A stretch of DNA of 64,000 nucleotides from Raja brachyura (lineage: Eukaryota). The notes under the pieces were generated by a model that was not told where the DNA came from, did no database searches, and saw nothing but the letters and a program-made list of their open reading frames with translations. The position numbers were made by a program, and so were the translations under genes. The stretch is from assembly GCA_963514005.1 (NCBI GenBank), contig OY740799.1:31124001-31188000 (forward strand), read 5' to 3'. Shown piece after piece: positions 209 through 64,000 of the stretch. Numbering within the stretch: position 1 is the first letter of the stretch; each line of letters starts with the position of its first letter.

Positions 209-271
209 CTGTTGTGGAACTGGAGGTAGTCTCAGTTGTTCCAGTTGTCAAAGATGTTGTTGGTGTTGTTC
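209..271 (-). CDS. Micro-exon type A, unit 1 (63 nt, phase 1-1): GTTPTTSLTTGTTETTSSSTT
   Basis: Acceptor TTCTTTTCTATTTGCTCTCCAG, donor ACAG|GTGAGT. It is the Thr-rich core of the 186..383 ORF. Confidence 0.9.
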
Positions 272-3200
272 CTGGAGAGCAAATAGAAAAGAATTTACAA
301 ATTGAATTGCAAGAGTCACCAATCAATTTCAGTACGACACTGTACATTTTCAAAAGACTGGGCTGAATTTTAACAATGTTCATTGCTTGTGCCTATGCAA
401 AGGACATTTATTAGTAAACCAAATTTTGTTTCGTCATTTATCAAATGCACCGAAATTATAAATAGACATTGTGATTTTTAGAAGAAAGTTCTAAACTCCT
501 TCGTTGATCAACTTTGGAACCATCATTGAGCAGAAACAAAACTGTTTAACAGCGCTGCCATGACCAAAAACTCCCGGAATAGTGGAGGAGGCGAAGGGAA
601 GAGACCTTTTCTAAAAAGTGAAAATCCTTATCCATGTCAACTGAAAAGTGCAGATTTAATGCTCTTTTTGAAATTATTGTAGGCAACCAGCACCAAAAGG
701 CCTCATTAATTTGGTATTTACTTCTATATTTTCGTGGTGAGAAACTACATTTTTGGAATAAAGCAATGAACAAATATTCATGAAGAGGGTGCGATATGGA
801 GCTTCACTAAACAAAGCACCGAATCCAAAAGGAAAAGTTAACAAGATTGATAGATGATGTTACTAACCTGATGTAGTGCTGGTGGTGGTCTCAGTTGTTG
901 GTGTCGTTTCTAGTGAAAGAAAAGATTGCTCTATTCAAGTGGGGCAGCCAAGAGGAATTGGTACTCAGTTATAAAGCCATCAACAGGAATTCATGAGCTG
1001 GCACATTTCATGAAAGTGTTTTAATATGTAGATTGGTTACTTCTTACTAATATGCGAAGATAAACTGCTCAGCAACAACAGACTGTATCCCCCGCAGCCG
1101 CTCCATGGCGTTCTGCACCCAGCACGCTTATTTCACCACCTCCAATCGGTGTGTCTCCGGTGCCATCCCCGGTCACTTCCCCGTCACTTTATCGATTAAT
1201 TGAATAAAGCGTGCGATCATACTATGGGCTGCATTACTTTTTACTTGTCAATCAGCGGCTGAATAATTCAGGGTCATCATGAACAATTTCAATTTCTTAA
1301 TATACCAACTTCAGATTTTGTGGAAGCTCAGCAGTATTCTAAGACCTATTGATCAGAAATTTAGAACATAAGGAGCGGTAAAGTGCCACAACTGGCGCAA
1401 CTCCTACCTCACAGCACCAGAGACATCAGATTGATTTGTTCCGTGGGTGCTGTGTACATGGAGATGACATGCCCTCCCTGTTATGTGTTGCTTTCCTACA
1501 AGTATCTGAAATATATTTCACTAACCTGATGTGGTGCTGGTAGTGGTCTCTGTTGTTGATGTAGTTGTTGGTGTTCCTAGTGAAAGAAAATAAAGCAATA
1601 TTTAACCAAGACAGCCAAGAGGAATTGGTATACAGCTAACTATTGGTAGTCAGGAAACCATCAGCAGCAATTCATATGCTGGTACACTTTATTAAAATGT
1701 TTAACAGATGACATTTTTGTTCAACCTAGAATAAAATGGCAAGGCAAAATATACTTTTGATAAATCAGCAGCTGAATATTTCAGTGCAATCACAAATAAT
1801 CCTGTTCTATCTATACACCAGTTGCGGATTTCCTGGAAGATCAACCGTCTTCCAAAGACTGCAAGGTCTACTTAATACCATATTTTATAATACCATTATT
1901 CGTGGATCCATTTTTGAAAAATCTTTGAGCTGAAACAAAACTGTTTAACTGCGTTGCCATGACCAAAAACTACAGGAATAGTGGAAGAGGCGAAGGGAAG
2001 AGACCTTTTCTATAAAAGTGAAAATCCTTATCCATGTCTGCTGAAAGGTGCCAGACTCAATTCTCTTTTTAAAATTATGGCAGGCAATCAGCAACAAATG
2101 GCCTCCTCAATTCGGTAGTTGTTTCTATATTTTCATGGTGAGAAACTACATTTTTTGAATAAAGCAATGAACAAATATTCCTGAAGAGGGGGCTATATAG
2201 AGCTTCACTAAACAAAGCACAGAGTCCAAAAGTAAACGCTAACAAGATTGATAGATGATGTTACTAACCTGATGTAGTGCTGGTAGTGGTCTCAGTTGTT
2301 GGTGTAGTTTCTAGTGAAAGAAAAGATTGCTCTATTCAAGTGGGGCAGCCAAGAGAATTGGTACGCAGTTATAAAGCCATCAACAGGAATTCATGAGCTG
2401 GCACATTTTATGAAAGTGTTTTCATGTGTAGTTTGGTTGCTTCTTACAAATATGCAAAGATAAACTGCTCAGCAACAACAGACTGTGTCCCCCGTGGCCT
2501 CTCCACGGCGTTCTGCGCCCAGCACGCTTATTTCACCACCTCGCCGGTCACTTTCCCGGACACTTCACCGGTGAATTCCCCATCACTTTACCGATTAATT
2601 GAATAAAGCGTGCGGCCATACTATACGGCTGCATTACTTTTTCCTTGTCAATCAGCAGCTGAATATTTCAGGGCCATCATAAACAATTTCAATTTCTTAA
2701 TGTACCAACTTCAGATTTTGTGGAAGCTCAGCAAGTATTCCAAGAACTACTGATCAGAAATGTCGAACATAAGGAGCGGTAAAGTGCCAAAACTGTTGCA
2801 ACTCCTACCTCACAGCACCAGAGACATCAGATTGATTTGTTCCGTGGGTGTTGTGTGCATGGAGATGACATGTCCTCCCTGTTATGTGTGGCTTTCCTAC
2901 AAATGTCTGAAATATATTGTCACTGACCTGATATAGTACTGGTAGTGGTCTCAGTTATTGATGTAGTTGTTGGTGTTCCTGGTGAAAGAAAATAACGCAA
3001 TATTCAACCAAGACGGCAAGAGGAATTGGTACACAGCTAACTATTGGCAGTCAAGAAACCATCAGAAGGAATTCATAGGCTGGCACGCATTATTAAAAAT
3101 TTTAACAGATGGCATTTTTGTTCTTCGTAGAATAAAATGACAGAGCAAAATATATTTGATCAATCAGCAGCTGAATATTTCTGTGCCATCACAAATAAAC

Positions 3201-6200
3201 CTGTTCTGACTATACATCAGTTACGGATATCCTGGAAGATTACCGTCTTCCAAAGACCTCAAAATCACCATGTTGTCCAATACCATTATTTGTTGAACCA
3301 TGTTTGAAAAATCTTTGAGCTGAAACAAAACTGTTTAACAGCGTTGCCATGACAAAAAAACTCCCGGAAATCTGGAGGAGGCGAAGGGAAGAGACCTTTT
3401 CTAAAAAGCGAAAATCCTTATCCATGTCAACTGAAAAATGCCAGATTTAATGCTGTTTGTGAAATTATTGTAGGCAACCAGCACCAAAAGGCCTCCTTAA
3501 TTTGGTAGTTGTTTCTATATTTTTGTGGTGAGAAACTACATTTTTGGAATAAAACAATGAACAAATATTCATGAAGAGGGGGCTATATAGAGCTTCACTA
3601 AACAAAGCACAGAGTCCAAAAGGAAAAGCCAACAAGATTGATAGATGATGATACTAACCTGATGTAGTGCTGGTGGTGGTCTCAGTTGTTGGTGTTGTTT
3701 CTAGTGAAAGAAAAGATTGCTCTATTCAAGTGGGGCAGCCAAGAGAATTGGAACGCAGATATGAAGCCATCAACAGGAATTCATCAACTGGCATATTTTA
3801 TGAAAACGTTTTACTAGTTGTCACTTTCTTCATCAGTGAATAAACCATGCGGCCATACTATACGGCTGCATTACTTTTTCCTTGTCTTTGAGAAATTGCA
3901 TCTGATCAGGCATCTAGAAAGATTGATTTGGCACAGCTGTGCAGCTGGTAGAGCTGCAGCCTCATAGTGTCATAGATTTGTATTCTATCCTAACCTCGGG
4001 TGCTGTCAGGGCTGGGATTGCACGTTCTCCCTTTCACTACCTGTGATCCCCCCAAGTTTTTAACAGAGGATGATACTGACCTGATGTAGTGGTGGTCCCA
4101 GATGTTGATGTAGTTGTTTCTAGTGAAATAAAAAAATGTTATGTTCCACTGAGACAAACAAGAGGAATAGTTATGCGGTTTAGAATCCTCCAACAGGAAT
4201 TTATCAACTGGCACCTTTTAATAAGAAATTTTACACTTGATCTTGACTTATCAGTGAATATAGCATATGGCCATACTATGCTGCTGCATTACATTTTCCT
4301 TGTCAATCAGCTGCTGAATGTCAGGGCCACCACAAATAATTCCAACTTCTTAATGTACCAACTTCAGATTTTGTGGAAGCTCAGCAAGTATTCCAAGAAC
4401 TACTGATCATAAATTTACAACATAAGCAGCGGTAAAGTGCCACAACTGTTGCAACTCCTACCTCACAGCACCAGAGACTTCAGATTGATTTGTTCCGTGG
4501 GTGCTGTGTGCATGGAGATTACATGTACTCCCTGTTATGTGTGCCTTTCCTACATGTGTGTGAAATATATTGTCACTAACCTGATGTAGTACTGGTAGTG
4601 GTCTCTGTTGTTGATGTAGTTGTTGGTGTTTCTAGTGAAAGAAAATAATGCAATATTCAACCAGGACAGCCAAGAGGAATTGGTACATAGCTAACTATTG
4701 GTAGTCAGGAAACCATCAGCAGGAATTCATATGGTGGCACACTTAATTGAAATGTTGAACAGAAGGCATTTTTGTTCTTCACAGAATAAAATTGTAGGGA
4801 AAATATAATTTTGATCAATCAGAAGCTGAATATTTCAGTGCCATCACAAATAATTCTGTTCTATCTATACACCAGTTGCAGATTTCCTGGAAGATCAACC
4901 ATCTTCCAAAGACTGCAAGGTCTACTTAATACCATCATTTCCGATAGTATGTACTGTGTGTACTATGGGTAAGCATGTCTGTTCATATGCCCCATTGATA
5001 CATGATTATCAACTTGCATAAATTGTGTTCATTATAATCATGTTTTTGATTTTTGCTATGGAATGGCCGTAGAAATTGAGAAGCAGAAAACACCAACTCA
5101 TTTCCTCCACAAATCCAAACTATTTTGAAATTGTGACAAAATTTGGTAGAATTGTTATGAGTCAAACATTGACATCTTAACATGTATATTTGCACAATTG
5201 ATGCCAATAATTTAAGCAAAGATGCAAGAAGTAAGTCACAGAGCTGATGTTAGAAATGTTGTCTCATTGTCTTCGATTTGCCAATGTTTATTGAAAGTGG
5301 TTTGACTCACCTGTTGTGGAACTGGAGGTAGTCTCAGTTGTTCCAGTTGTCAAAGATGTTGTTGGTGTTGTTCCTGGAGAGCAAATAGAAAAGAATTTAC
5401 AAATTGAATTGCAAGAGTCACCAATCAATTTCAGTACGACACTGTACATTTTCCTGAGACTGGGCTGAATTTTAACAATGTTCATTGCTTGTGCCTATGC
5501 AAAGGACATTTATTAGTAAACCAAATTTTGTTTCGTCATTTATCAAATGCACCGAAATTATAAATAGACATTGTGATTTTTAGAAGAAAGTTCTAAACTC
5601 CTTCGTTGATCAACTTTGGAACCATCATTGAGCAGAAACAAAACTGTTTAACAGCGCTGCCATGACCAAAAACTCCCGGAATAGTGGAGGAGGCGAAGGG
5701 AAGAGACCTTTTCTAAAAAGTGAAAATCCTTAGCCATGTCAACTGAAAAGTGCAGATTTAATGCTCTTTTTGAAATTATTGTAGGCAACCAGCACCAAAA
5801 GGCCTCATTAATTTGGTATTTACTTCTATATTTTCGTGGTGAGAAACTACATTTTTGGAATAAAGCAATGAACAAATATTCATGAAGAGGGTGCGATATG
5901 GAGCTTCACTAAACAAAGCACAGAATCCAAAAGGAAAAGTTAACAAGATTGATAGATGATGTTACTAACCTGATGTAGTGCTGGTGGTGGTCTCAGTTGT
6001 TGGTGTCGTTTCTAGTGAAAGAAAAGATTGCTCTATTCAAGTGGGGCAGCCAAGAGGAATTGGTACTCAGTTATAAAGCCATCAACAGGAATTCATGAGC
6101 TGGCACATTTCATGAAAGTGTTTTAATATGTAGATTGGTTACTTCTTACTAATATGCGAAGATAAACTGCTCAGCAACAACAGACTGTATCCCCCGCAGC

Positions 6201-42200: not shown

Positions 42201-45200
42201 TGCCACAACTGGCGCAACTCCTACCTCACAGCACCAGAGACATCAGATTGATTTGTTCCGTGGGTGCTGTGTACATGGAGATGACATGCCCTCCCTGTTA
42301 TGTGTTGCTTTCCTACAAGTATCTGAAATATATTTCACTAACCTGATGTGGTGCTGGTAGTGGTCTCTGTTGTTGATGTAGTTGTTGGTGTTCCTAGTGA
42401 AAGAAAATAAAGCAATATTTAACCAAGACAGCCAAGAGGAATTGGTATACAGCTAACTATTGGTAGTCAGGAAACCATCAGCAGCAATTCATATGCTGGT
42501 ACACTTTATTAAAATGTTTAACAGATGACATTTTTGTTCAACCTAGAATAAAATGGCAAGGCAAAATATACTTTTGATAAATCAGCAGCTGAATATTTCA
42601 GTGCAATCACAACTAATCCTGTTCTATCTATACACCAGTTGCGGATTTCCTGGAAGATCAACCGTCTTCCAAAGACTGCAAGGTCTACTTAATACCATAT
42701 TTTATAATACCATTATTCGTGGATCCATTTTTGAAAAATCTTTGAGCTGAAACAAAACTGTTTAACTGCGTTGCCATGACCAAAAACTACAGGAATAGTG
42801 GAAGAGGCGAAGGGAAGAGACCTTTTCTGTAAAAGTGAAAATCCTTATCCATGTCTGCTGAAAGGTGCCAGACTCAATTCTCTTTTTTAAATTATGGCAG
42901 GCAATCAGCAACAAATGGCCTCCTCAATTCGGTAGTTGTTTCTATATTTTCATGGTGAGAAACTACATTTTTTGAATAAAGCAATGAACAAATATTCCTG
43001 AAGAGGGGGCTATATAGAGCTTCACTAAACAAAGCACAGAGTCCAAAAGGAAACGCTAACAAGATTGATAGATGATGTTACTAACCTGATGTAGTGCTGG
43101 TAGTGGTCTCAGTTGTTGGTGTCGTTTCTAGTGAAAGAAAAGATTGCTCTATTCAAGTGGGGCAGCCAAGAGGAATTGGTACTCAGTTATAAAGCCATCA
43201 ACAGGAATTCATGAGCTGGCACATTTCATGAAAGTGTTTTAATATGTAGATTGGTTACTTCTTACTAATATGCGAAGATAAACTGCTCAGCAACAACAGA
43301 CTGTATCCCCCGCAGCCGCTCCATGGCGTTCTGCACCCAGCAAGCTTATTTCACCACCTCCAATCGGTGTGTCTCCAGTGCCATCCCCGGTCACTTCCCC
43401 GTCACTTTATCGATTAATTGAATAAAGCGTGCGATCATACTATGGGCTGCATTACTTTTTACTTGTCAATCAGCGGCTGAATAATTCAGGGTCATCATGA
43501 ACAATTTCAATTTCTTAATATACCAACTTCAGATTTTGTGGAAGCTCAGCAGTATTCTAAGACCTATTGATCAGAAATTTAGAACATAAGGAGCGGTAAA
43601 GTGCCACAACTGGCGCAACTCCTACCTCACAGCACCAGAGACATCAGATTGATTTGTTCCGTGGGTGCTGTGTACATGGAGATGACATGCCCTCCCTGTT
43701 ATGTGTTGCTTTCCTACAAGTATCTGAAATATATTTCACTAACCTGATGTGGTGCTGGTAGTGGTCTCTGTTGTTGATGTAGTTGTTGGTGTTCCTAGTG
43801 AAAGAAAATAAAGCAATATTTAACCAAGACAGCCAAGAGGAATTGGTATACAGCTAACTATTGGTAGTCAGGAAACCATCAGCAGCAATTCATATGCTGG
43901 TACACTTTATTAAAATGTTTAACAGATGACATTTTTGTTCAACCTAGAATAAAATGGCAAGGCAAAATATACTTTTGATAAATCAGCAGCTGAATATTTC
44001 AGTGCAATCACAACTAATCCTGTTCTATCTATACACCAGTTGCGGATTTCCTGGAAGATCAACCGTCTTCCAAAGACTGCAAGGTCTACTTAATACCATA
44101 TTTTATAATACCATTATTCGTGGATCCATTTTTGAAAAATCTTTGAGCTGAAACAAAACTGTTTAACTGCGTTGCCATGACCAAAAACTACAGGAATAGT
44201 GGAAGAGGCGAAGGGAAGAGACCTTTTCTGTAAAAGTGAAAATCCTTATCCATGTCTGCTGAAAGGTGCCAGACTCAATTCTCTTTTTTAAATTATGGCA
44301 GGCAATCAGCAACAAATGGCCTCCTCAATTCGGTAGTTGTTTCTATATTTTCATGGTGAGAAACTACATTTTTTGAATAAAGCAATGAACAAATATTCCT
44401 GAAGAGGGGGCTATATAGAGCTTCACTAAACAAAGCACAGAGTCCAAAAGGAAACGCTAACAAGATTGATAGATGATGTTACTAACCTGATGTAGTGCTG
44501 GTAGTGGTCTCAGTTGTTGGTGTCGTTTCTAGTGAAAGAAAAGATTGCTCTATTCAAGTGGGGCAGCCAAGAGGAATTGGTACTCAGTTATAAAGCCATC
44601 AACAGGAATTCATGAGCTGGCACATTTCATGAAAGTGTTTTAATATGTAGATTGGTTACTTCTTACTAATATGCGAAGATAAACTGCTCAGCAACAACAG
44701 ACTGTATCCCCCGCAGCCGCTCCATGGCGTTCTGCACCCAGCAAGCTTATTTCACCACCTCCAATCGGTGTGTCTCCAGTGCCATCCCCGGTCACTTCCC
44801 CGTCACTTTATCGATTAATTGAATAAAGCGTGCGATCATACTATGGGCTGCATTACTTTTTACTTGTCAATCAGCGGCTGAATAATTCAGGGTCATCATG
44901 AACAATTTCAATTTCTTAATATACCAACTTCAGATTTTGTGGAAGCTCAGCAGTATTCTAAGACCTATTGATCAGAAATTTAGAACATAAGGAGCGGTAA
45001 AGTGCCACAACTGGCGCAACTCCTACCTCACAGCACCAGAGACATCAGATTGATTTGTTCCGTGGGTGCTGTGTACATGGAGATGACATGCCCTCCCTGT
45101 TATGTGTTGCTTTCCTACAAGTATCTGAAATATATTTCACTAACCTGATGTGGTGCTGGTAGTGGTCTCTGTTGTTGATGTAGTTGTTGGTGTTCCTAGT

Positions 45201-48200
45201 GAAAGAAAATAAAGCAATATTTAACCAAGACAGCCAAGAGGAATTGGTATACAGCTAACTATTGGTAGTCAGGAAACCATCAGCAGCAATTCATATGCTG
45301 GTACACTTTATTAAAATGTTTAACAGATGACATTTTTGTTCAACCTAGAATAAAATGGCAAGGCAAAATATACTTTTGATAAATCAGCAGCTGAATATTT
45401 CAGTGCAATCACAACTAATCCTGTTCTATCTATACACCAGTTGCGGATTTCCTGGAAGATCAACCGTCTTCCAAAGACTGCAAGGTCTACTTAATACCAT
45501 ATTTTATAATACCATTATTCGTGGATCCATTTTTGAAAAATCTTTGAGCTGAAACAAAACTGTTTAACTGCGTTGCCATGACCAAAAACTACAGGAATAG
45601 TGGAAGAGGCGAAGGGAAGAGACCTTTTCTGTAAAAGTGAAAATCCTTATCCATGTCTGCTGAAAGGTGCCAGACTCAATTCTCTTTTTTAAATTATGGC
45701 AGGCAATCAGCAACAAATGGCCTCCTCAATTCGGTAGTTGTTTCTATATTTTCATGGTGAGAAACTACATTTTTTGAATAAAGCAATGAACAAATATTCC
45801 TGAAGAGGGGGCTATATAGAGCTTCACTAAACAAAGCACAGAGTCCAAAAGGAAACGCTAACAAGATTGATAGATGATGTTACTAACCTGATGTAGTGCT
45901 GGTAGTGGTCTCAGTTGTTGGTGTCGTTTCTAGTGAAAGAAAAGATTGCTCTATTCAAGTGGGGCAGCCAAGAGAATTGGTACGCAGTTATAAAGCCATC
46001 AACAGGAATTCATGAGCTGGCACATTTTATGAAAGTGTTTTCATGTGTAGTTTGGTTGCTTCTTACTAATATGCAAAGATAAACTGCTCAGCAACAACAG
46101 ACTGTGTCCCCCGTGGCCTCTCCACGGCGTTCTGCGCCCAGCACGCTTATTTCACCACCTCGCCGGTCACTTTCCCGGACACTTCACCGGTGAATTCCCC
46201 ATCACTTTACCGATTAATTGAATAAAGCGTGCGGCCATACTATACGGCTGCATTACTTTTTCCTTGTCAATCAGCAGCTGAATATTTCAGGGCCATCATA
46301 AACAATTTCAATTTCTTAATGTACCAACTTCAGATTTTGTGGAAGCTCAGCAAGTATTCCAAGAACTACTGATCAGAAATGTCGAACATAAGGAGCGGTA
46401 AAGTGCCAAAACTGTTGCAACTCCTACCTCACAGCACCAGAGACATCAGATTGATTTGTTCCGTGGGTGTTGTGTGCATGGAGATGACATGTCCTCCCTG
46501 TTATGTGTGGCTTTCCTACAAATGTCTGAAATATATTGTCACTAACCTGATGTAGTACTGGTAGTGGTCTCAGTTATTGATGTAGTTGTTGGTGTTCCTG
46601 GTGAAAGAAAATAACGCAATATTCAACCAAGACGGCAAGAGGAATTGGTACACAGCTAACTATTGGCAGTCAAGAAACCATCAGAAGGAATTCATAGGCT
46701 GGCACGCATTATTAAAAATTTTAACAGATGGCATTTTTGTTCTTCGTAGAATAAAATGACAGAGCAAAATATATTTGATCAATCAGCAGCTGAATATTTC
46801 TGTGCCATCACAAATAAACCTGTTCTGACTATACATCAGTTACGGATATCCTGGAAGATTACCGTCTTCCAAAGACCTCAAAATCACCATGTTGTCCAAT
46901 ACCATTATTTGTTGAACCATGTTTGAAAAATCTTTGAGCTGAAACAAAACTGTTTAACAGCGTTGCCATGACAAAAAAACTCCCGGAAATCTGGAGGAGG
47001 CGAAGGGAAGAGACCTTTTCTAAAAAGCGAAAATCCTTATCCATGTCAACTGAAAAATGCCAGATTTAATGCTGTTTGTGAGATTATTGTAGGCAACCAG
47101 CACCAAAAGGCCTCCTTAATTTGGTAGTTGTTTCTATATTTTTGTGGTGAGAAACTACATTTTTGGAATAAAACAATGAACAAATATTCATGAAGAGGGG
47201 GCTATATAGAGCTTCACTAAACAAAGCACAGAGTCCAAAAGGAAAAGCTAACAAGATTGATAGATGATGATACTAACCTGATGTAGTGCTGGTGGTGGTC
47301 TCAGTTGTTGCTGTTGTTTCTAGTGAAAGAAAAGATTGCTCTATTCAAGTGGGGCAGCCAAGAGAATTGGAACGCAGATATGAAGCCATCAACAGGAATT
47401 CATCAACTGGCATATTTTATGAAAACGTTTTACTAGTTGTCACTTTCTTCATCAGTGAATAAACCATGCGGCCATACTATACGGCTGCATTACTTTTTCC
47501 TTGTCTTTGAGAAATTGCATCTGATCAGGCATCTAGAAATATTGATTTGGCACAGCTGTGCAGCTGGTAGAGCTGCAGCCTCATAGTGTCATAGATTTGT
47601 ATTCTATCCTAACCTCGGGTGCTGTCAGGGCTGGGATTGCACGTTCTCCCTTTCACTACCTGTGATCCCCCCAAGTTTTTAACAGAGGATGATACTGACC
47701 TGATGTAGTGGTGGTCCCAGATGTTGATGTAGTTGTTTCTAGTGAAATAAAAAAATGTTATGTTCCACTGAGACAAACAAGAGGAATTGTTATGCGGTTT
47801 AGAATCCTCCAACAGGAATTTATCAACTGGCACCTTTTAATAAGAAATTTTACACTTGATCTTTACTTATCAGTGAATATAGCGTATGGCCATACTATGC
47901 TGCTGCATTACTTTTTCCTTGTCAATCAGCTGCTGAATGTCAGGGCCACCACAAATAATTCCAACTTCTTAATGTACCAACTTCAGATTTTGTGGAAGCT
48001 CAGCAAGTATTCCAAGAACTACTGATCATAAATTTACAACATAAGCAGCGGTAAAGTGCCACAACTGTTGCAACTCCTACCTCACAGCACCAGAGACTTC
48101 AGATTGATTTGTTCCGTGGGTGCTGTGTGCATGGAGATTACATGTACTCCCTGTTATGTGTGCCTTTCCTACATGTGTGTGAAATATATTGTCACTAACC

Positions 48201-51200
48201 TGATGTAGTACTGGTAGTGGTCTCTGTTGTTGATGTAGTTGTTGGTGTTTCTAGTGAAAGAAAATAATGCAATATTCAACCAGGACAGCCAAGAGGAATT
48301 GGTACATAGCTAACTATTGGTAGTCAGGAAACCATCAGCAGGAATTCATATGGTGGCACACTTAATTGAAATGTTGAACAGAAGGCATTTTTGTTCTTCA
48401 CAGAATAAAATTGTAGGGAAAATATAATTTTGATCAATCAGAAGCTGAATATTTCAGTGCCATCACAAATAATTCTGTTCTATCTATACACCAGTTGCAG
48501 ATTTCCTGGAAGATCAACCATCTTCCAAAGACTGCAAGGTCTACTTAATACCATCATTTCCGATAGTATGTACTGTGTGTACTATGGGTAAGCATGTCTG
48601 TTCATATGCCCCATTGATACATGATTATCAACTTGCATAAATTGTGTTCATTATAATCATGTTTTTGATTTTTGCTATGGAATGGCCGTAGAAATTGAGA
48701 AGCAGAAAACACCAACTCATTTCCTCCACAAATCCAAACTATTTTGAAATTGTGACAAAATTTGGTAGAATTGTTATGAGTCAAACATTGACATCTTAAC
48801 ATGTATATTTGCACAATTTATGCCAATAATTTAAGCAAAGATGCAAGAAGTAAGTCACAGAGCTGATGTTAGAAATGTTGTCTCATTGTCTTCGATTTGC
48901 CAATGTTTATTGAAAGTGGTTTGACTCACCTGTTGTGGAACTGGAGGTAGTCTCAGTTGTTCCAGTTGTCAAAGATGTTGTTGGTGTTGTTCCTGGAGAG
49001 CAAATAGAAAAGAATTTACAAATTGAATTGCAAGAGTCACCAATCAATTTCAGTACGACACTGTACATTTTCAAAAGACTGGGCTGAATTTTAACAATGT
49101 TCATTGCTTGTGCCTATGCAAAGGACATTTATTAGTAAACCAAATTTTGTTTCGTCATTTATCAAATGCACCGAAATTATAAATAGACATTGTGATTTTT
49201 AGAAGAAAGTTCTAAACTCCTTCGTTGATCAACTTTGGAACCATCATTGAGCAGAAACAAAACTGTTTAACAGCGCTGCCATGACCAAAAACTCCCGGAA
49301 TAGTGGAGGAGGCGAAGGGAAGAGACCTTTTCTAAAAAGTGAAAATCCTTATCCATGTCAACTGAAAAGTGCAGATTTAATGCTCTTTTTGAAATTATTG
49401 TAGGCAACCAGCACCAAAAGGCCTCATTAATTTGGTATTTACTTCTATATTTTCGTGGTGAGAAACTACATTTTTGGAATAAAGCAATGAACAAATATTC
49501 ATGAAGAGGGTGCGATATGGAGCTTCACTAAACAAAGCACCGAATCCAAAAGGAAAAGTTAACAAGATTGATAGATGATGTTACTAACCTGATGTAGTGC
49601 TGGTGGTGGTCTCAGTTGTTGGTGTCGTTTCTAGTGAAAGAAAAGATTGCTCTATTCAAGTGGGGCAGCCAAGAGGAATTGGTACTCAGTTATAAAGCCA
49701 TCAACAGGAATTCATGAGCTGGCACATTTCATGAAAGTGTTTTAATATGTAGATTGGTTACTTCTTACTAATATGCGAAGATAAACTGCTCAGCAACAAC
49801 AGACTGTATCCCCCGCAGCCGCTCCATGGCGTTCTGCACCCAGCAAGCTTATTTCACCACCTCCAATCGGTGTGTCTCCAGTGCCATCCCCGGTCACTTC
49901 CCCGTCACTTTATCGATTAATTGAATAAAGCGTGCGATCATACTATGGGCTGCATTACTTTTTACTTGTCAATCAGCGGCTGAATAATTCAGGGTCATCA
50001 TGAACAATTTCAATTTCTTAATATACCAACTTCAGATTTTGTGGAAGCTCAGCAGTATTCTAAGACCTATTGATCAGAAATTTAGAACATAAGGAGCGGT
50101 AAAGTGCCACAACTGGCGCAACTCCTACCTCACAGCACCAGAGACATCAGATTGATTTGTTCCGTGGGTGCTGTGTACATGGAGATGACATGCCCTCCCT
50201 GTTATGTGTTGCTTTCCTACAAGTATCTGAAATATATTTCACTAACCTGATGTGGTGCTGGTAGTGGTCTCTGTTGTTGATGTAGTTGTTGGTGTTCCTA
50301 GTGAAAGAAAATAAAGCAATATTTAACCAAGACAGCCAAGAGGAATTGGTATACAGCTAACTATTGGTAGTCAGGAAACCATCAGCAGCAATTCATATGC
50401 TGGTACACTTTATTAAAATGTTTAACAGATGACATTTTTGTTCAACCTAGAATAAAATGGCAAGGCAAAATATACTTTTGATAAATCAGCAGCTGAATAT
50501 TTCAGTGCAATCACAACTAATCCTGTTCTATCTATACACCAGTTGCGGATTTCCTGGAAGATCAACCGTCTTCCAAAGACTGCAAGGTCTACTTAATACC
50601 ATATTTTATAATACCATTATTCGTGGATCCATTTTTGAAAAATCTTTGAGCTGAAACAAAACTGTTTAACTGCGTTGCCATGACCAAAAACTACAGGAAT
50701 AGTGGAAGAGGCGAAGGGAAGAGACCTTTTCTGTAAAAGTGAAAATCCTTATCCATGTCTGCTGAAAGGTGCCAGACTCAATTCTCTTTTTTAAATTATG
50801 GCAGGCAATCAGCAACAAATGGCCTCCTCAATTCGGTAGTTGTTTCTATATTTTCATGGTGAGAAACTACATTTTTTGAATAAAGCAATGAACAAATATT
50901 CCTGAAGAGGGGGCTATATAGAGCTTCACTAAACAAAGCACAGAGTCCAAAAGGAAACGCTAACAAGATTGATAGATGATGTTACTAACCTGATGTAGTG
51001 CTGGTAGTGGTCTCAGTTGTTGGTGTCGTTTCTAGTGAAAGAAAAGATTGCTCTATTCAAGTGGGGCAGCCAAGAGGAATTGGTACTCAGTTATAAAGCC
51101 ATCAACAGGAATTCATGAGCTGGCACATTTCATGAAAGTGTTTTAATATGTAGATTGGTTACTTCTTACTAATATGCGAAGATAAACTGCTCAGCAACAA

Positions 51201-54200
51201 CAGACTGTATCCCCCGCAGCCGCTCCATGGCGTTCTGCACCCAGCAAGCTTATTTCACCACCTCCAATCGGTGTGTCTCCAGTGCCATCCCCGGTCACTT
51301 CCCCGTCACTTTATCGATTAATTGAATAAAGCGTGCGATCATACTATGGGCTGCATTACTTTTTACTTGTCAATCAGCGGCTGAATAATTCAGGGTCATC
51401 ATGAACAATTTCAATTTCTTAATATACCAACTTCAGATTTTGTGGAAGCTCAGCAGTATTCTAAGACCTATTGATCAGAAATTTAGAACATAAGGAGCGG
51501 TAAAGTGCCACAACTGGCGCAACTCCTACCTCACAGCACCAGAGACATCAGATTGATTTGTTCCGTGGGTGCTGTGTACATGGAGATGACATGCCCTCCC
51601 TGTTATGTGTTGCTTTCCTACAAGTATCTGAAATATATTTCACTAACCTGATGTGGTGCTGGTAGTGGTCTCTGTTGTTGATGTAGTTGTTGGTGTTCCT
51701 AGTGAAAGAAAATAAAGCAATATTTAACCAAGACAGCCAAGAGGAATTGGTATACAGCTAACTATTGGTAGTCAGGAAACCATCAGCAGCAATTCATATG
51801 CTGGTACACTTTATTAAAATGTTTAACAGATGACATTTTTGTTCAACCTAGAATAAAATGGCAAGGCAAAATATACTTTTGATAAATCAGCAGCTGAATA
51901 TTTCAGTGCAATCACAACTAATCCTGTTCTATCTATACACCAGTTGCGGATTTCCTGGAAGATCAACCGTCTTCCAAAGACTGCAAGGTCTACTTAATAC
52001 CATATTTTATAATACCATTATTCGTGGATCCATTTTTGAAAAATCTTTGAGCTGAAACAAAACTGTTTAACTGCGTTGCCATGACCAAAAACTACAGGAA
52101 TAGTGGAAGAGGCGAAGGGAAGAGACCTTTTCTGTAAAAGTGAAAATCCTTATCCATGTCTGCTGAAAGGTGCCAGACTCAATTCTCTTTTTTAAATTAT
52201 GGCAGGCAATCAGCAACAAATGGCCTCCTCAATTCGGTAGTTGTTTCTATATTTTCATGGTGAGAAACTACATTTTTTGAATAAAGCAATGAACAAATAT
52301 TCCTGAAGAGGGGGCTATATAGAGCTTCACTAAACAAAGCACAGAGTCCAAAAGGAAACGCTAACAAGATTGATAGATGATGTTACTAACCTGATGTAGT
52401 GCTGGTAGTGGTCTCAGTTGTTGGTGTCGTTTCTAGTGAAAGAAAAGATTGCTCTATTCAAGTGGGGCAGCCAAGAGAATTGGTACGCAGTTATAAAGCC
52501 ATCAACAGGAATTCATGAGCTGGCACATTTTATGAAAGTGTTTTCATGTGTAGTTTGGTTGCTTCTTACTAATATGCAAAGATAAACTGCTCAGCAACAA
52601 CAGACTGTGTCCCCCGTGGCCTCTCCACGGCGTTCTGCGCCCAGCACGCTTATTTCACCACCTCGCCGGTCACTTTCCCGGACACTTCACCGGTGAATTC
52701 CCCATCACTTTACCGATTAATTGAATAAAGCGTGCGGCCATACTATACGGCTGCATTACTTTTTCCTTGTCAATCAGCAGCTGAATATTTCAGGGCCATC
52801 ATAAACAATTTCAATTTCTTAATGTACCAACTTCAGATTTTGTGGAAGCTCAGCAAGTATTCCAAGAACTACTGATCAGAAATGTCGAACATAAGGAGCG
52901 GTAAAGTGCCAAAACTGTTGCAACTCCTACCTCACAGCACCAGAGACATCAGATTGATTTGTTCCGTGGGTGTTGTGTGCATGGAGATGACATGTCCTCC
53001 CTGTTATGTGTGGCTTTCCTACAAATGTCTGAAATATATTGTCACTAACCTGATGTAGTACTGGTAGTGGTCTCAGTTATTGATGTAGTTGTTGGTGTTC
53101 CTGGTGAAAGAAAATAACGCAATATTCAACCAAGACGGCAAGAGGAATTGGTACACAGCTAACTATTGGCAGTCAAGAAACCATCAGAAGGAATTCATAG
53201 GCTGGCACGCATTATTAAAAATTTTAACAGATGGCATTTTTGTTCTTCGTAGAATAAAATGACAGAGCAAAATATATTTGATCAATCAGCAGCTGAATAT
53301 TTCTGTGCCATCACAAATAAACCTGTTCTGACTATACATCAGTTACGGATATCCTGGAAGATTACCGTCTTCCAAAGACCTCAAAATCACCATGTTGTCC
53401 AATACCATTATTTGTTGAACCATGTTTGAAAAATCTTTGAGCTGAAACAAAACTGTTTAACAGCGTTGCCATGACAAAAAAACTCCCGGAAATCTGGAGG
53501 AGGCGAAGGGAAGAGACCTTTTCTAAAAAGCGAAAATCCTTATCCATGTCAACTGAAAAATGCCAGATTTAATGCTGTTTGTGAGATTATTGTAGGCAAC
53601 CAGCACCAAAAGGCCTCCTTAATTTGGTAGTTGTTTCTATATTTTTGTGGTGAGAAACTACATTTTTGGAATAAAACAATGAACAAATATTCATGAAGAG
53701 GGGGCTATATAGAGCTTCACTAAACAAAGCACAGAGTCCAAAAGGAAAAGCTAACAAGATTGATAGATGATGATACTAACCTGATGTAGTGCTGGTGGTG
53801 GTCTCAGTTGTTGGTGTTGTTTCTAGTGAAAGAAAAGATTGCTCTATTCAAGTGGGGCAGCCAAGAGAATTGGAACGCAGATATGAAGCCATCAACAGGA
53901 ATTCATCAACTGGCATATTTTATGAAAACGTTTTACTAGTTGTCACTTTCTTCATCAGTGAATAAACCATGCGGCCATACTATACGGCTGCATTACTTTT
54001 TCCTTGTCTTTGAGAAATTGCATCTGATCAGGCATCTAGAAATATTGATTTGGCACAGCTGTGCAGCTGGTAGAGCTGCAGCCTCATAGTGTCATAGATT
54101 TGTATTCTATCCTAACCTCGGGTGCTGTCAGGGCTGGGATTGCACGTTCTCCCTTTCACTACCTGTGATCCCCCCAAGTTTTTAACAGAGGATGATACTG

Positions 54201-57200
54201 ACCTGATGTAGTGGTGGTCCCAGATGTTGATGTAGTTGTTTCTAGTGAAATAAAAAAATGTTATGTTCCACTGAGACAAACAAGAGGAATAGTTATGCGG
54301 TTTAGAATCCTCCAACAGGAATTTATCAACTGGCACCTTTTAATAAGAAATTTTACACTTGATCTTTACTTATCAGTGAATATAGCGTATGGCCATACTA
54401 TGCTGCTGCATTACTTTTTCCTTGTCAATCAGCTGCTGAATGTCAGGGCCACCACAAATAATTCCAACTTCTTAATGTACCAACTTCAGATTTTGTGGAA
54501 GCTCAGCAAATATTCCAAGAACTACTGATCATAAATTTACAACATAAGCAGCGGTAAAGTGCCACAACTGTTGCAACTCCTACCTCACAGCACCAGAGAC
54601 TTCAGATTGATTTGTTCCGTGGGTGCTGTGTGCATGGAGATTACATGTACTCCCTGTTATGTGTGCCTTTCCTACATGTGTGTGAAATATATTGACACTA
54701 ACCTGATGTAGTACTGGTAGTGGTCTCTGTTGTTGATGTAGTTGTTGGTGTTTCTAGTGAAAGAAAATAATGCAATATTCAACCAGGACAGCCAAGAGGA
54801 ATTGGTACATAGCTAACTATTGGTAGTCAGGAAACCATCAGCAGGAATTCATATGGTGGCACACTTAATTGAAATGTTGAACAGAAGGCATTTTTGTTCT
54901 TCACAGAATAAAATTGTAGGGAAAATATAATTTTGATCAATCAGAAGCTGAATATTTCAGTGCCATCACAAATAATTCTGTTCTATCTATACACCAGTTG
55001 CAGATTTCCTGGAAGATCAACCATCTGCCAAAGACTGCAAGGTCTACTTAATACCATCATTTCCGATAGTATGTACTGTGTGTACTATGGGTAAGCATGT
55101 CTGTTCATATGCCCCATTGATACATGATTATCAACTTGCATAAATTGTGTTCATTATAATCATGTTTTTGATTTTTGCTATGGAATGGCCGTAGAAATTG
55201 AGAAGCAGAAAACACCAACTCATTTCCTCCACAAATCCAAACTATTTTGAAATTGTGACATAATTTGGTAGAATTGTTATGAGTCAAACATTGACATCTT
55301 AACATGTATATTTGCACAATTTATGCCAATAATTTAAGCAAAGATGCAAGAAGTAAGTCACAGAGCTGATGTTAGAAATGTTGTCTCATTGTCTTCGATT
55401 TGCCAATGTTTATTGAAAGTGGTTTGACTCACCTGTTGTGGAACTGGAGGTAGTCTCAGTTGTTCCAGTTGTCAAAGATGTTGTTGGTGTTGTTCCTGGA
55501 GAGCAAATAGAAAAGAATTTACAAATTGAATTGCAAGAGTCACCAATCAATTTCAGTACGACACTGTACATTTTCAAAAGACTGGGCTGAATTTTAACAA
55601 TGTTCATTGCTTGTGCCTATGCAAAGGACATTTATTAGTAAACCAAATTTTGTTTCGTCATTTATCAAATGCACCGAAATTATAAATAGACATTGTGATT
55701 TTTAGAAGAAAGTTCTAAACTCCTTCGTTGATCAACTTTGGAACCATCATTGAGCAGAAACAAAACTGTTTAACAGCGCTGCCATGACCAAAAACTCCCG
55801 GAATAGTGGAGGAGGCGAAGGGAAAAGACCTTTTCTAAAAAGTGAAAATCCTTATCCATGTCAACTGAAAAGTGCAGATTTAATGCTCTTTTTGAAATTA
55901 TTGTAGGCAACCAGCACCAAAAGGCCTCATTAATTTGGTATTTACTTCTATATTTTTGTGGTGAGAAACTACATTTTTGGAATAAAGCAATGAACAAATA
56001 TTCATGAAGAGGGTGCGATATGGAGCTTCACTAAACAAAGCACCGAATCCAAAAGGAAAAGTTAACAAGATTGATAGATGATGTTACTAACCTGATGTAG
56101 TGCTGGTGGTGGTCTCAGTTGTTGGTGTCGTTTCTAGTGAAAGAAAAGATTGCTCTATTCAAGTGGGGCAGCCAAGAGGAATTGGTACTCAGTTATAAAG
56201 CCATCAACAGGAATTCATGAGCTGGCACATTTCATGAAAGTGTTTTAATATGTAGATTGGTTACTTCTTACTAATATGCGAAGATAAACTGCTCAGCAAC
56301 AACAGACTGTATCCCCCGCAGCCGCTCCATGGCGTTCTGCACCCAGCACGCTTATTTCACCACCTCCAATCGGTGTGTCTCCGGTGCCATCCCCGGTCAC
56401 TTCCCCGTCACTTTATCGATTAATTGAATAAAGCGTGCGATCATACTATGGGCTGCATTACTTTTTACTTGTCAATCAGCGGCTGAATAATTCAGGGTCA
56501 TCATGAACAATTTCAATTTCTTAATATACCAACTTCAGATTTTGTGGAAGCTCAGCAGTATTCTAAGACCTATTGATCAGAAATTTAGAACATAAGGAGC
56601 GGTAAAGTGCCACAACTGGCGCAACTCCTACCTCACAGCACCAGAGACATCAGATTGATTTGTTCCGTGGGTGCTGTGTACATGGAGATGACATGCCCTC
56701 CCTGTTATGTGTTGCTTTCCTACAAGTATCTGAAATATATTTCACTAACCTGATGTGGTGCTGGTAGTGGTCTCTGTTGTTGATGTAGTTGTTGGTGTTC
56801 CTAGTGAAAGAAAATAAAGCAATATTTAACCAAGACAGCCAAGAGGAATTGGTATACAGCTAACTATTGGTAGTCAGGAAACCATCAGCAGCAATTCATA
56901 TGCTGGTACACTTTATTAAAATGTTTAACAGATGACATTTTTGTTCAACCTAGAATAAAATGGCAAGGCAAAATATACTTTTGATAAATCAGCAGCTGAA
57001 TATTTCAGTGCAATCACAAATAATCCTGTTCTATCTATACACCAGTTGCGGATTTCCTGGAAGATCAACCGTCTTCCAAAGACTGCAAGGTCTACTTAAT
57101 ACCATATTTTATAATACCATTATTCGTGGATCCATTTTTGAAAAATCTTTGAGCTGAAACAAAACTGTTTAACTGCGTTGCCATGACCAAAAACTACAGG

Positions 57201-63200: not shown

Positions 63201-64000
63201 CCTGTTATGTGTGGCTTTCCTACAAATGTCTGAAATATATTGTCACTAACCTGATGTAGTACTGGTAGTGGTCTCAGTTATTGATGTAGTTGTTGGTGTT
63301 CCTGGTGAAAGAAAATAACGCAATATTCAACCAAGACGGCAAGAGGAATTGGTACACAGCTAACTATTGGCAGTCAAGAAACCATCAGAAGGAATTCATA
63401 GGCTGGCACGCATTATTAAAAATTTTAACAGATGGCATTTTTGTTCTTCGTAGAATAAAATGACAGAGCAAAATATATTTGATCAATCAGCAGCTGAATA
63501 TTTCTGTGCCATCACAAATAAACCTGTTCTGACTATACATCAGTTACGGATATCCTGGAAGATTAACGTCTTCCAAAGACCTCAAAATCTACTGAACGCC
63601 ATGTGGTCTAATACCAGTATTTGTTGATCCATTTTTGAAAATTCTTTGAGCTGAAACAAAACTGTTAAACAGCGTTGTCATGACAAAAAACTCCAGGAAT
63701 AGTGGAAGAGGCGAAGGGCAGAGACCTTTTCTATAAAAGTGAAAATCCTTATCCATGTCTGGTGAACAGTGCCAGACTCAATTCTCTTTATAAAATTATT
63801 GCAGGCAACCAGCAACAAAAGGCCTCCTTAATTCGGTAGTTGTTTCTATATTTTCGTGGTGAGAAACTATATTTTTGGAATAAAACAATGAACAAATATT
63901 CATGAAGTGGGGCCTATTTCGAGCTTCACCATAAAAAGTACAGAGTCCAAAAGGAAAATCTAACAAGATTGATAGATGATGATACTAACCTGATGTAGTG
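209..64000 (-). CDS. Internal portion of a giant multi-micro-exon gene encoding a mucin-like Thr/Ser-rich (PTS) domain; 99 complete exons plus 1 partial, ~1573 codons; both gene ends lie outside the window
   Basis: Each Thr-codon-rich block on the minus strand is preceded by a polypyrimidine tract + YAG (mostly TTTTCTTTCACTAG) and followed by GTTAGT, GTCAGT or GTGAGT. All are 3n long and phase 1-1, and they join into a stop-free frame. Unit peptide in transcript order H-G-F-E-D-C-B-A: ETPTTTSTTETTTSTTS ETTTSTSGTTTTS ETTPTTETTTSTTS GTPTTTSITETTTSTTS ETTPTTETTTSTTS GTPTTTSTTETTTSTTS ETTPTTETTTSTTS GTTPTTSLTTGTTETTSSSTT (79 T, 22 S, 12 E, 7 P, 5 G, 1 I, 1 L). Confidence 0.88.
868..909 (-). CDS. 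Micro-exon type B, unit 1 (42 nt): ETTPTTETTTSTTS
   Basis: Acceptor TCTTTTCTTTCACTAG, donor TCAG|GTTAGT. Confidence 0.88.
1047..1195 (-). mobile_element. ~149-bp GC/CpG-rich intronic insertion, possibly a small non-autonomous element (paralogue at 2447-2594; present in every unit)
   Basis: Absent from the homologous F-G and G-H introns (G-H intron 461 nt vs 616/617 nt). Minus-strand ends are A|TC...TTAG|T and it contains 12-bp internal repeats. The class assignment is tentative. Confidence 0.4.
1526..1576 (-). CDS. Micro-exon type C, unit 1 (51 nt): GTPTTTSTTETTTSTTS
   Basis: Acceptor TTTATTTTCTTTCACTAG, donor TCAG|GTTAGT. Confidence 0.88.
2269..2310 (-). CDS. Micro-exon type D, unit 1 (42 nt): ETTPTTETTTSTTS
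   Basis: Paralogue of exon B at +1401; same splice sites; differs from B only at synonymous Thr codons. Confidence 0.88.
2544..2591. repeat. Degenerate 12-bp minisatellite (4 copies) inside the intronic insertion; paralogue at ~1146-1192
   Basis: ccggtcactttc ccggacacttca ccggtgaattcc ccatcactttac. Confidence 0.75.
2928..2978 (-). CDS. Micro-exon type E, unit 1 (51 nt): GTPTTTSITETTTSTIS (ends ...STTS in most units)
   Basis: Acceptor TTATTTTCTTTCACCAG; donor GTCAGT in units 1 and 6, GTTAGT in the others. Confidence 0.87.
3659..3700 (-). CDS. Micro-exon type F, unit 1 (42 nt): ETTPTTETTTSTTS
   Basis: Acceptor TCTTTTCTTTCACTAG, donor TCAG|GTTAGT. Confidence 0.88.
4081..4119 (-). CDS. Micro-exon type G, unit 1 (39 nt): ETTTSTSGTTTTS
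   Basis: Acceptor TTTTTTTATTTCACTAG, donor TCAG|GTCAGT. Confidence 0.86.
4581..4631 (-). CDS. Micro-exon type H, unit 1 (51 nt): ETPTTTSTTETTTSTTS
   Basis: Acceptor TTATTTTCTTTCACTAG, donor TCAG|GTTAGT. Confidence 0.88.
5311..9733 (-). CDS. Unit 2 exon set (8 micro-exons)
   Basis: A 5311-5373, B 5970-6011, C 6628-6678, D 7371-7412, E 8030-8080, F 8761-8802 (T>A variant at 8788), G 9183-9221, H 9683-9733. Confidence 0.86.
10413..14835 (-). CDS. Unit 3 exon set (8 micro-exons)
   Basis: A 10413-10475, B 11072-11113, C 11730-11780, D 12473-12514, E 13132-13182, F 13863-13904 (T>A variant), G 14285-14323, H 14785-14835. Confidence 0.86.
15515..19937 (-). CDS. Unit 4 exon set (8 micro-exons)
   Basis: A 15515-15577, B 16174-16215, C 16832-16882, D 17575-17616, E 18234-18284, F 18965-19006, G 19387-19425, H 19887-19937. 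Confidence 0.86.
20617..25039 (-). CDS. Unit 5 exon set (8 micro-exons)
   Basis: A 20617-20679, B 21276-21317, C 21934-21984, D 22677-22718, E 23336-23386, F 24067-24108, G 24489-24527, H 24989-25039. Confidence 0.86.
25719..29629 (-). CDS. Unit 6 exon set (7 intact micro-exons; exon H has lost its acceptor)
   Basis: A 25719-25781, B 26378-26419 (E>V at 26419), C 27036-27086, D 27779-27820, E 28438-28488, F 29169-29210, G 29591-29629. Confidence 0.85.
30091..30141 (-). pseudogene. Probable pseudo-exon: unit 6 copy of exon H with acceptor AG>GG
   Basis: + strand reads gtttccagtgaaag here versus gtttctagtgaaag in all other H copies (t>c at 30143), so the minus strand has CACTGG instead of CACTAG. 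The same change creates the unique 29968..30198 ORF. Confidence 0.75.
30821..35243 (-). CDS. Unit 7 exon set (8 micro-exons)
   Basis: A 30821-30883, B 31480-31521, C 32138-32188, D 32881-32922, E 33540-33590, F 34271-34312, G 34693-34731, H 35193-35243. Confidence 0.86.
35923..40346 (-). CDS. Unit 8 exon set (8 micro-exons; 1-bp intronic insertion at ~36365)
   Basis: A 35923-35985, B 36583-36624, C 37241-37291, D 37984-38025, E 38643-38693, F 39374-39415, G 39796-39834, H 40296-40346. Confidence 0.86.
41026..48250 (-). CDS. Unit 9 exon set (12 micro-exons; C+D pair triplicated)
   Basis: A 41026-41088, B 41685-41726, C 42343-42393, D' 43086-43127, C 43744-43794, D' 44487-44528, C 45145-45195, D 45888-45929, E 46547-46597, F 47278-47319 (P>A at 47311), G 47700-47738, H 48200-48250. 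Confidence 0.85.
41727..45929. repeat. Three tandem copies of a 1401-bp sub-unit (intron, exon C, intron, exon D) inside unit 9
   Basis: Copies 41727-43127, 43128-44528, 44529-45929; the MARQN... ORF recurs at 42553, 43954 and 45355. Confidence 0.97.
48930..54753 (-). CDS. Unit 10 exon set (10 micro-exons; C+D pair duplicated)
   Basis: A 48930-48992, B 49589-49630, C 50247-50297, D' 50990-51031, C 51648-51698, D 52391-52432, E 53050-53100, F 53781-53822, G 54203-54241, H 54703-54753. Confidence 0.85.
49631..52432. repeat. Two tandem copies of the 1401-bp sub-unit inside unit 10
   Basis: Copies 49631-51031 and 51032-52432; ORF recurs at 50457 and 51858. Confidence 0.97.
55433..59852 (-). CDS. 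Unit 11 exon set (8 micro-exons; 3-bp intronic deletion at ~57465)
   Basis: A 55433-55495, B 56092-56133, C 56750-56800, D 57490-57531, E 58149-58199, F 58880-58921, G 59302-59340, H 59802-59852. Confidence 0.86.
60532..63301 (-). CDS. Unit 12 (partial) exon set (5 micro-exons)
   Basis: A 60532-60594, B 61191-61232, C 61849-61899, D 62592-62633, E 63251-63301. Confidence 0.86.
63566..63989. repeat. Diverged paralogous intron marking the edge of the homogeneous array
   Basis: From 63566 the sequence departs from the E-F intron consensus by many substitutions and is 8 bp longer up to the next exon (63990 vs expected 63982). Confidence 0.9.
63990..64000 (-). CDS. 3' end of a further B/D/F-like exon, cut by the window edge
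   Basis: gatactaac|ctgatgtagtg, i.e. ...CACTACATCAG|GTTAGT on the minus strand. Confidence 0.75.

Follow-up and report, generated by a model that had tools for sequence, protein, structure and literature searches.

A predicted Muc19-family mucin gene of Raja brachyura with its mucin domain on an array of 231 repeated phase-1 micro-exons

The window analysed here, by which we mean the whole 64,000-nucleotide (nt) stretch of Raja brachyura DNA at C19:31,124,001-31,188,000, lies inside a long tandem array that we predict to encode the mucin domain, with abundant Pro, Thr and Ser (PTS), of a gel-forming mucin of the Muc19 family, referred to below as gene A. The window is a tandem repeat with a dominant period of 5,102 base pairs (bp) and an inner period of 1.4 kb, and the first unit is matched at 99.4-99.7% identity by the best eight whole-unit copies; Tandem Repeats Finder, with a period limit of 500, reported no repeat in it. 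The 5,102-bp unit holds eight exons and eight introns and is itself composed of exon-plus-intron monomers of ~0.4-0.75 kb and a 1.4-kb b-c dimer (~89% alike). The array is a nested repeat of such monomers, in which units of 10 and 12 exons stand beside the usual units of eight. An initial annotation, made from the window, had described a 5.1-kb macrosatellite whose unit comprises exons together with their introns, eight blocks to a unit; the period and the joint repetition of exons and introns are borne out, and eight is the usual count, from which two window units depart with 12 and 10 exons.

Both strands of the window were scanned for AG..GT blocks, with exon length and frame left free. A Thr+Ser content of at least 60% was reached by 243 of the 2,249 minus-strand readings, all in one frame and overlapping one another as repeated readings of the same blocks, against none of the 1,409 plus-strand readings. 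The window holds 98 intact minus-strand blocks of 39, 42, 51 or 63 nt, every one of phase 1-1, which total 4,668 nt and join into a stop-free peptide of 1,555 amino acids (aa) with 79% Thr+Ser. The earlier estimate of about 100 symmetric micro-exons of 39-63 nt, giving ~1,570 aa of ~80% Thr+Ser from ~7% of the window, thus agrees in share (7.3% measured), composition, symmetry and freedom from stops, and is corrected to 98 exons and 1,555 aa because a 99th block has lost its acceptor. Likewise, the splice sites it called canonical are so in that every donor is GT, with the textbook GTRAG form confined to the 63-nt exon (12 of 62 strict candidates). Among all 231 exons of the array the commonest donors are GTTAGT (166) and GTCAGT (33).

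To either side, 200 kb on the left and 400 kb on the right were examined, and the assembly is gap-free over these 664 kb. The full array comprises 231 exons at C19:31,038,435-31,198,802 (160 kb, ~28 units). The gene A model joins 29 N-terminal, 231 repeat and five C-terminal exons, 265 in all, from a start codon at C19:31,236,082, 48 kb past the right window edge, to a stop codon at C19:31,026,609, 97 kb past the left edge. Hence neither gene end lies in the window, as had been stated, and the proposed look at the flanks for in-frame non-repetitive exons finds them on both sides, completing a gel-forming mucin. None of the 265 exons has boundaries other than AG/GT, four exon boundaries having been set by shifting them 1-4 nt to AG/GT positions that match homologues. 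The coding sequence of 15,129 nt (5,043 codons, the single stop being terminal) makes up 7.2% of a 209-kb span and would specify a protein of 5,042 aa (~519 kDa before sugars), divided into a head of 1,210 aa, a PTS domain of 3,676 aa and a tail of ~156 aa. The domain order is signal peptide, D1-D2-D'D3, PTS, VWC-like and cystine knot, on the following evidence: 1) The N-terminus is hydrophobic, as judged by eye, and is taken as a signal peptide. 2) The VWD, C8 and TIL Pfam profiles match flank exons above cut-off, forming three N-terminal VWD-C8-TIL assemblies, and the D1 exon matches structures of MUC5B, MUC5AC and MUC2 (best E 2.7e-14). 3) The PTS domain, on the predicted splice path, has 62% Thr, 17% Ser and 6% Pro, with 2,910 Thr+Ser residues and no Cys. 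4) PF00007 (Cys_knot) matches two tail exons with E 0.015 and 9.6e-5, each half being below cut-off, and the last 92 aa contain 11 Cys that align with MUC5AC and MUC19. Downstream of the array the frame enters the VWC-like and cystine-knot exons and then a stop, a different course from that of a transmembrane mucin of the Muc13 or MUC1 type; no SEA, EGF or transmembrane exons occur along the frame after the array, no search aimed at SEA having been made. Flanks of VWD and cystine knot rule out a trefoil-type or transmembrane mucin.

A homology census of the array recovered 236 exon-like blocks, of which 231 have both splice sites intact; in the other five, two have AG changed to GG, one lacks an acceptor, one is inverted and one is shortened to 15 nt. 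The shortened block (C19:31,043,141-31,043,176) retains AG, GT and frame and is a possible 232nd exon, kept outside the model. The inverted 60-nt PTS exon lies at the array edge (C19:31,193,413-31,193,472); its two splice sites, on the opposite strand, are preserved. An interspersed repeat inserted into one array intron has enlarged it to 4.8 kb. The high-copy repeat fragment listed in Table 1 is presumably a short interspersed element (SINE).

Table 1. Features of the window (positions counted from its first letter)
Feature	Position	Strand	Remarks
PTS-coding array of gene A, central 40%	209..63301	-	98 intact phase 1-1 micro-exons
63-nt exon, type A (one per unit)	209..271	-	CAG acceptor, GTGAGT donor
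Complete 5,102-bp unit, 8 exons + 8 introns	302..5403		transcript-direction order A-b-d-c-b-c-b-c
42-nt exon, type c	868..909	-	peptide TTPTTETTTSTTS, GTTAGT donor
51-nt exon, type b	1526..1576	-	
42-nt exon, type c	2269..2310	-	
51-nt exon, type b	2928..2978	-	
42-nt exon, type c	3659..3700	-	
High-copy interspersed repeat fragment in one intron	3929..4032		amplified in every unit; depth spike and loose ends in 4/4 sequencing runs
39-nt exon, type d	4081..4119	-	GTCAGT donor
51-nt exon, type b	4581..4631	-	first after next type A exon in transcript order
51-nt type b block (99th block)	30091..30141	-	acceptor dead (AG to GG); frame kept if skipped
Expanded unit, 7,904 bp, 12 exons	41119..49022		b-c dimer x2 extra
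Expanded unit, 6,503 bp, 10 exons	49023..55525		b-c dimer x1 extra

To place gene A we compared its unique exons with known proteins. Proteins matching the D3 exon number 16, all from fish; 13 of them belong to sharks, rays and chimaera, and most carry the name mucin-19-like. When the D1 exon served as query, none of eight candidates was found. The N-terminal 1,209 aa are 64-69% identical to Mobula hypostoma P0002 and Hypanus sabinus XP_059842765.1. In a FastTree phylogeny (770 columns; the 91 of 165 proteins that cover the D2-D3 stretch), gene A falls inside a 31-member clade with support 1.0, together with the mucin-19 of horse, pika, kangaroo-rat and desman and with Amia MUC19; its nearest protein is that of Mobula, and dog MUC5AC lies outside. 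In the C8-3 module, 29 of the 31 clade members have GKxxGFC in place of DCxCxC, a signature derived in the present analysis, and 56 of the 60 other proteins have DCxCxC. Gene A keeps the equivalent of MUC2 Cys1130 and lacks that of Cys1088, as in 29 of the 31 Muc19-clade proteins examined; MUC2 without Cys1088 still dimerises (PMC7599080). The propeller exons of LRRK2, at C19:32.69-32.72 Mb, lie 42 kb from a D1 exon of the gene cluster described below and 1.45 Mb from gene A, and were located by a propeller family search, a COR-A family search for LRRK2 giving no match on C19. A head-to-head sugar transporter at C19:32.91-32.94 Mb is, we assume from its position, SLC2A13; in the human order the MUC19 locus adjoins LRRK2 and SLC2A13. 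Gene A thus differs in clade and motif from the MUC2/MUC5/MUC6 group. The locus of that group lies near AP2A2, and C18 of R. brachyura carries a separate mucin cluster ~1 Mb from an alpha-adaptin gene match. Taken together, the tree, the C8-3 signature and the synteny identify the predicted product of gene A as a Muc19-family gel-forming mucin, in keeping with the earlier hint at a MUC19-type gene.

Gene A belongs to a cluster of about ten Muc19-type genes around LRRK2, C19:30.6-33.2 Mb containing nine D1 and ten D3 exon matches. That one gene extends across all the arrays is ruled out, as every array comes with a head or cystine-knot exons that belong to it. Paralogue B (C19:31,369,401-31,558,899), 340 kb from gene A, has 182 exons in one frame and ~4,627 aa in a model where one C8 exon offers four in-frame acceptor choices. 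Its 34 head and tail exon lengths equal those of gene A (30 mapped directly, four after a 1-nt adjustment). It has five VWD domains, namely D1, D2 and D3 followed by PTS-CysD-D4 twice; the two PTS-CysD-D4 blocks are only ~89-97% alike and carry different insertions, which rules out a false duplication. Gene A contains neither CysD nor D4. At C19:31,038,052 a PTS-type intron is joined to the last 31 nt of the TIL exon of B's D4, a donor without an acceptor, and gene A is shorter by ~13.8 kb of paralogue-B-equivalent sequence. Its CysD-D4 loss is a local deletion after the A/B duplication. Both this deletion and the doubling in B keep the frame because each joins phase 1 to phase 1. Among seven further genes of the cluster, viewed in 10-kb samples, three have phase-1 micro-exons and four contain open frames rich in PTS, 332-1,536 aa long (189-nt exons also occur in one of the four), so both PTS designs coexist in the cluster. 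In one C18 mucin gene an open frame of 5,481 aa includes CysD, the usual single-exon PTS design, and a clear PTS was absent from six of nine 10-kb stretches sampled at three C18 genes.

Several further repeats were seen in and beyond this cluster. A third PTS array, at C19:30,914,000-30,997,100, consists of His-Pro-rich 48/51-nt phase-1 exons, with a CysD exon at 30,914,018; the head exons found for it are limited to the last TIL3 exon and the short one that follows, D1-D3 being absent from the 29 kb up to the gene A stop, and the array looks 5'-truncated. CysD-containing exon repeats with periods of ~1.1, 5.3 and 6.5 kb at C19:31.905-31.925 Mb and 33.19-33.27 Mb are further apparent coding macrosatellites, with the cluster gene at 33.2 Mb situated on the far side of LRRK2 and the sugar transporter. 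A plus-strand D3 exon at C19:32,212,352, between the D1 (32,228,745) and D3 (32,180,230) of a minus-strand gene, is possibly a local inversion or a nested fragment. On C33, at 18.56-18.73 Mb, split CysD (WxxW) exons are repeated over 170 kb in what seems to be another gene for a repeat-built secreted protein.

The micro-exons bear several marks of purifying selection. When the donor is picked by score alone, every one of the 363 repeat exons in genes A and B has a length divisible by three, a test that covers donors and not acceptors, the exons having come from a frame-aware scan. Codon positions 1, 2 and 3 differ by 2.1, 5.2 and 11.4% against 10.2-10.6% in introns (176 of 1,500 sampled pairs, 70-97% alike), and indels are multiples of three in five of seven exon cases and only 25 of 185 intron cases. 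Among distinct repeat exons dN/dS is 0.30, and none of 77 contains a stop; for the N-terminal exons dN/dS between genes A and B is 0.54. We conclude that the repeat exons are, as judged from these patterns, under purifying selection. Strand bias, frame bias and selection together rule out a non-coding satellite.

Given these observations, we interpret the micro-exon array as encoding the predicted PTS domain of a gel-forming mucin whose Muc19-family gene is intact, and put the probability of this at roughly 0.8. Each short Thr/Ser-rich module would form its own phase-1 exon, and the array would likely have grown by unequal crossing-over of whole exon-plus-intron blocks. Every repeat exon being phase 1 at both ends, the gain, loss or skipping of exons keeps the frame, and this neutrality accounts for the toleration of altered copy numbers, of splice sites gone dead and of insertions within introns. 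Splicing would reduce a transcript of ~209 kb to ~15 kb of coding sequence that retains most micro-exons, and the protein would be secreted, densely O-glycosylated, dimerised through the cystine knot and polymerised through that cysteine of D3 which corresponds to MUC2 Cys1130. The product probably forms surface mucus, for which skin, gill or mouth is the likeliest site.

Several points weigh against this interpretation: 1) There is no independence among the 176 pairs retained by the identity filter. 2) The exons of the divergence test were preselected for intact AG/GT and high Thr/Ser/Pro, so that AG/GT invariance is by construction. 3) For the C-terminal exons dN/dS between A and B is 1.6 (25 nonsynonymous and four synonymous differences), which points to relaxed or diversifying rather than purifying selection there. 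4) A pyrimidine occupies donor position +3 in 199 of the 231 exons, weaker than consensus, and full micro-exon inclusion is thus not assured. 5) The tissue assignment is a guess from frog Muc19, a skin mucin (PMC4948705). Among the six public runs that carry the sequence none is an RNA run, for a query that was 93% intron, so that spliced RNA would share few words with it; in the four of the six runs that were compared the introns were covered in all, and the 15 joints shown, out of 20, include none that matches a predicted intron. These runs hence behave as DNA and are uninformative on expression.

The alternative that survives best, which we nevertheless regard as unlikely, is that the gene is expressed with most micro-exons skipped, leaving a shorter and variable PTS domain and an array that is largely passive cargo of repeat expansion. 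It would accommodate the weak +3 donors and the shorter PTS of public models of relatives (up to ~1,300 residues), and such skipping would be frame-neutral; moreover, the 16 of 28 units that were aligned are 99.3-99.9% alike, so the intactness of copies may reflect their youth. Yet both splice sites are kept in 231 of 236 homologous blocks, the codon-position pattern and the dN/dS of 0.30 persist in older, diverged exon types, and in the 16 young units themselves variable sites amount to 3 of 254 at positions 1 and 2, 7 of 127 at position 3 and 91 of 4,513 in introns. Less probable still is a recently silenced duplicate, crippled by the CysD-D4 deletion, with decay still to come: its 34 unique exons are free of stops and frameshifts, though the intervening sequence differs by ~8-15% from B, the ATG is preceded by a TATA-like element at ~90 nt and the stop followed by AATAAA at ~180 nt, and a D4-less layout, normal for MUC19 (PMC4948705), is also present in the sawfish model P0012. 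These features stand against the ~13.8 kb lost and the C-terminal dN/dS, both of which such silencing would fit. That the array length is an artefact, from over-expansion or mis-joining of long near-identical repeats that are hard to assemble and whose copy number is taken from the assembly alone, is the least probable of the three, there being zero gaps in the 664 kb, no identical pair among 120 unit pairs, a head-to-tail 5,102-bp joint in contigs of three of four public runs from three organisms (one of which may be the source sample), and a gradual passage into older, diverged units at both array edges.

If the array is, as we favour, the PTS domain of an intact gene, a wider proposal may be ventured, though we consider it doubtful: the phase-1 micro-exons of a ray/shark Muc19 cluster of about ten genes might serve as a modular kit, in which regulated skipping among 231 interchangeable exons would set mucin length cell by cell, and the phase rule would let domains drop out (a D4-less gene converging on mammalian MUC19) or double (five VWD domains, PTS-CysD-D4 twice), beside sister genes with large PTS exons. 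The 2006 proposal that splicing could set PTS length (PMC1552070) becomes directly testable on gene A. The cluster, in pairing micro-exon and large-exon PTS genes, offers a natural comparison for intron gain and loss in mucin domains. Gene A reveals no new protein family or chemistry; it illustrates how coding sequence can make up 7% of a 160-kb "macrosatellite", and provides a model, free of gaps, for a type of gene usually broken in public annotation. Our literature search, with most subscription journals outside its reach, found no paper on elasmobranch Muc19 exon structure and no published MUC19 exon count or description of repeat exons. Multi-exon PTS domains, Muc19 gene expansions and RefSeq relatives, mostly truncated, are already known; what is new is how large the array is (231 micro-exons in 160 kb), its nesting of repeats, the frame-neutral CysD-D4 loss in A and the PTS-CysD-D4 doubling in B.

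The closest known counterparts of gene A are the shark and ray mucin-19-like RefSeq models, which have similar Thr-rich modules, with PTS domains of at most ~1,300 aa against the 3,676 aa of gene A; Pristis pectinata P0012 likewise has PTS, VWC-like and cystine knot without D4. The RefSeq names of such relatives are mixed (mucin-19-like, -2-like, -6-like and -5AC-like, XP_059842765.1 being mucin-2-like). In a sample of 21 public shark and ray relatives, 13 of which came from a search limited to proteins of 2,000 aa or less that favours short models, six reach the C-terminus and 15 stop short, mostly inside the PTS. The expectation that annotation would miss such a gene is therefore borne out only in part: pipelines do find these genes, though they often leave them broken. 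Five models (P0002, P0005, P0007, P0008 and P0031) exit the PTS through Gly-Glu or Gly-Lys, the ends expected from read-through of a phase-1 GTGAG or GTAAG donor, a hint that the PTS of these relatives may also be split into exons. Mammalian MUC19 (porcine submaxillary mucin) and fish spiggin share with gene A the clade (support 1.0) and the C8-3 signature, and mammalian MUC19 also shares the position beside LRRK2. A many-exon PTS domain is attributed to human and mouse MUC19. MUC19 is without D4, which is kept in some spiggins (PMC4948705); the D4 loss of gene A is a separate local deletion. Muc19 is single-copy in human and mouse, in contrast to the nine D1 and ten D3 exon matches of the R. 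brachyura cluster, and five to seven copies are reported for stickleback (PMC2180178) and three genes for Callorhinchus (PMC4948705). MUC2, MUC5AC, MUC5B and MUC6 resemble gene A in their D1-D2-D'D3 head and cystine-knot tail and differ from it in having the PTS in one large exon and DCxCxC with the Cys1088 equivalent. The initial annotation rightly treated multi-exon PTS domains as a known exception: they are reported for chicken and zebrafish Muc13, with one exon per repeat (PMC1552070), Xenopus MucXS (Otogl), with the PTS over many exons (PMC5789918), and similarly chicken MUC2 (PMC3549977). As far as the accessible sections of these reports go, chicken Muc13, MucXS and chicken MUC2 belong to other families and have ~12-40 repeats against the 231 exons of gene A, and no higher-order multi-exon repeat unit such as that of gene A is described in them for any of Muc13, MucXS and chicken MUC2. 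Thus, gene A represents an extreme case of a rare but known way of building a mucin, by repeating introns along with exons.

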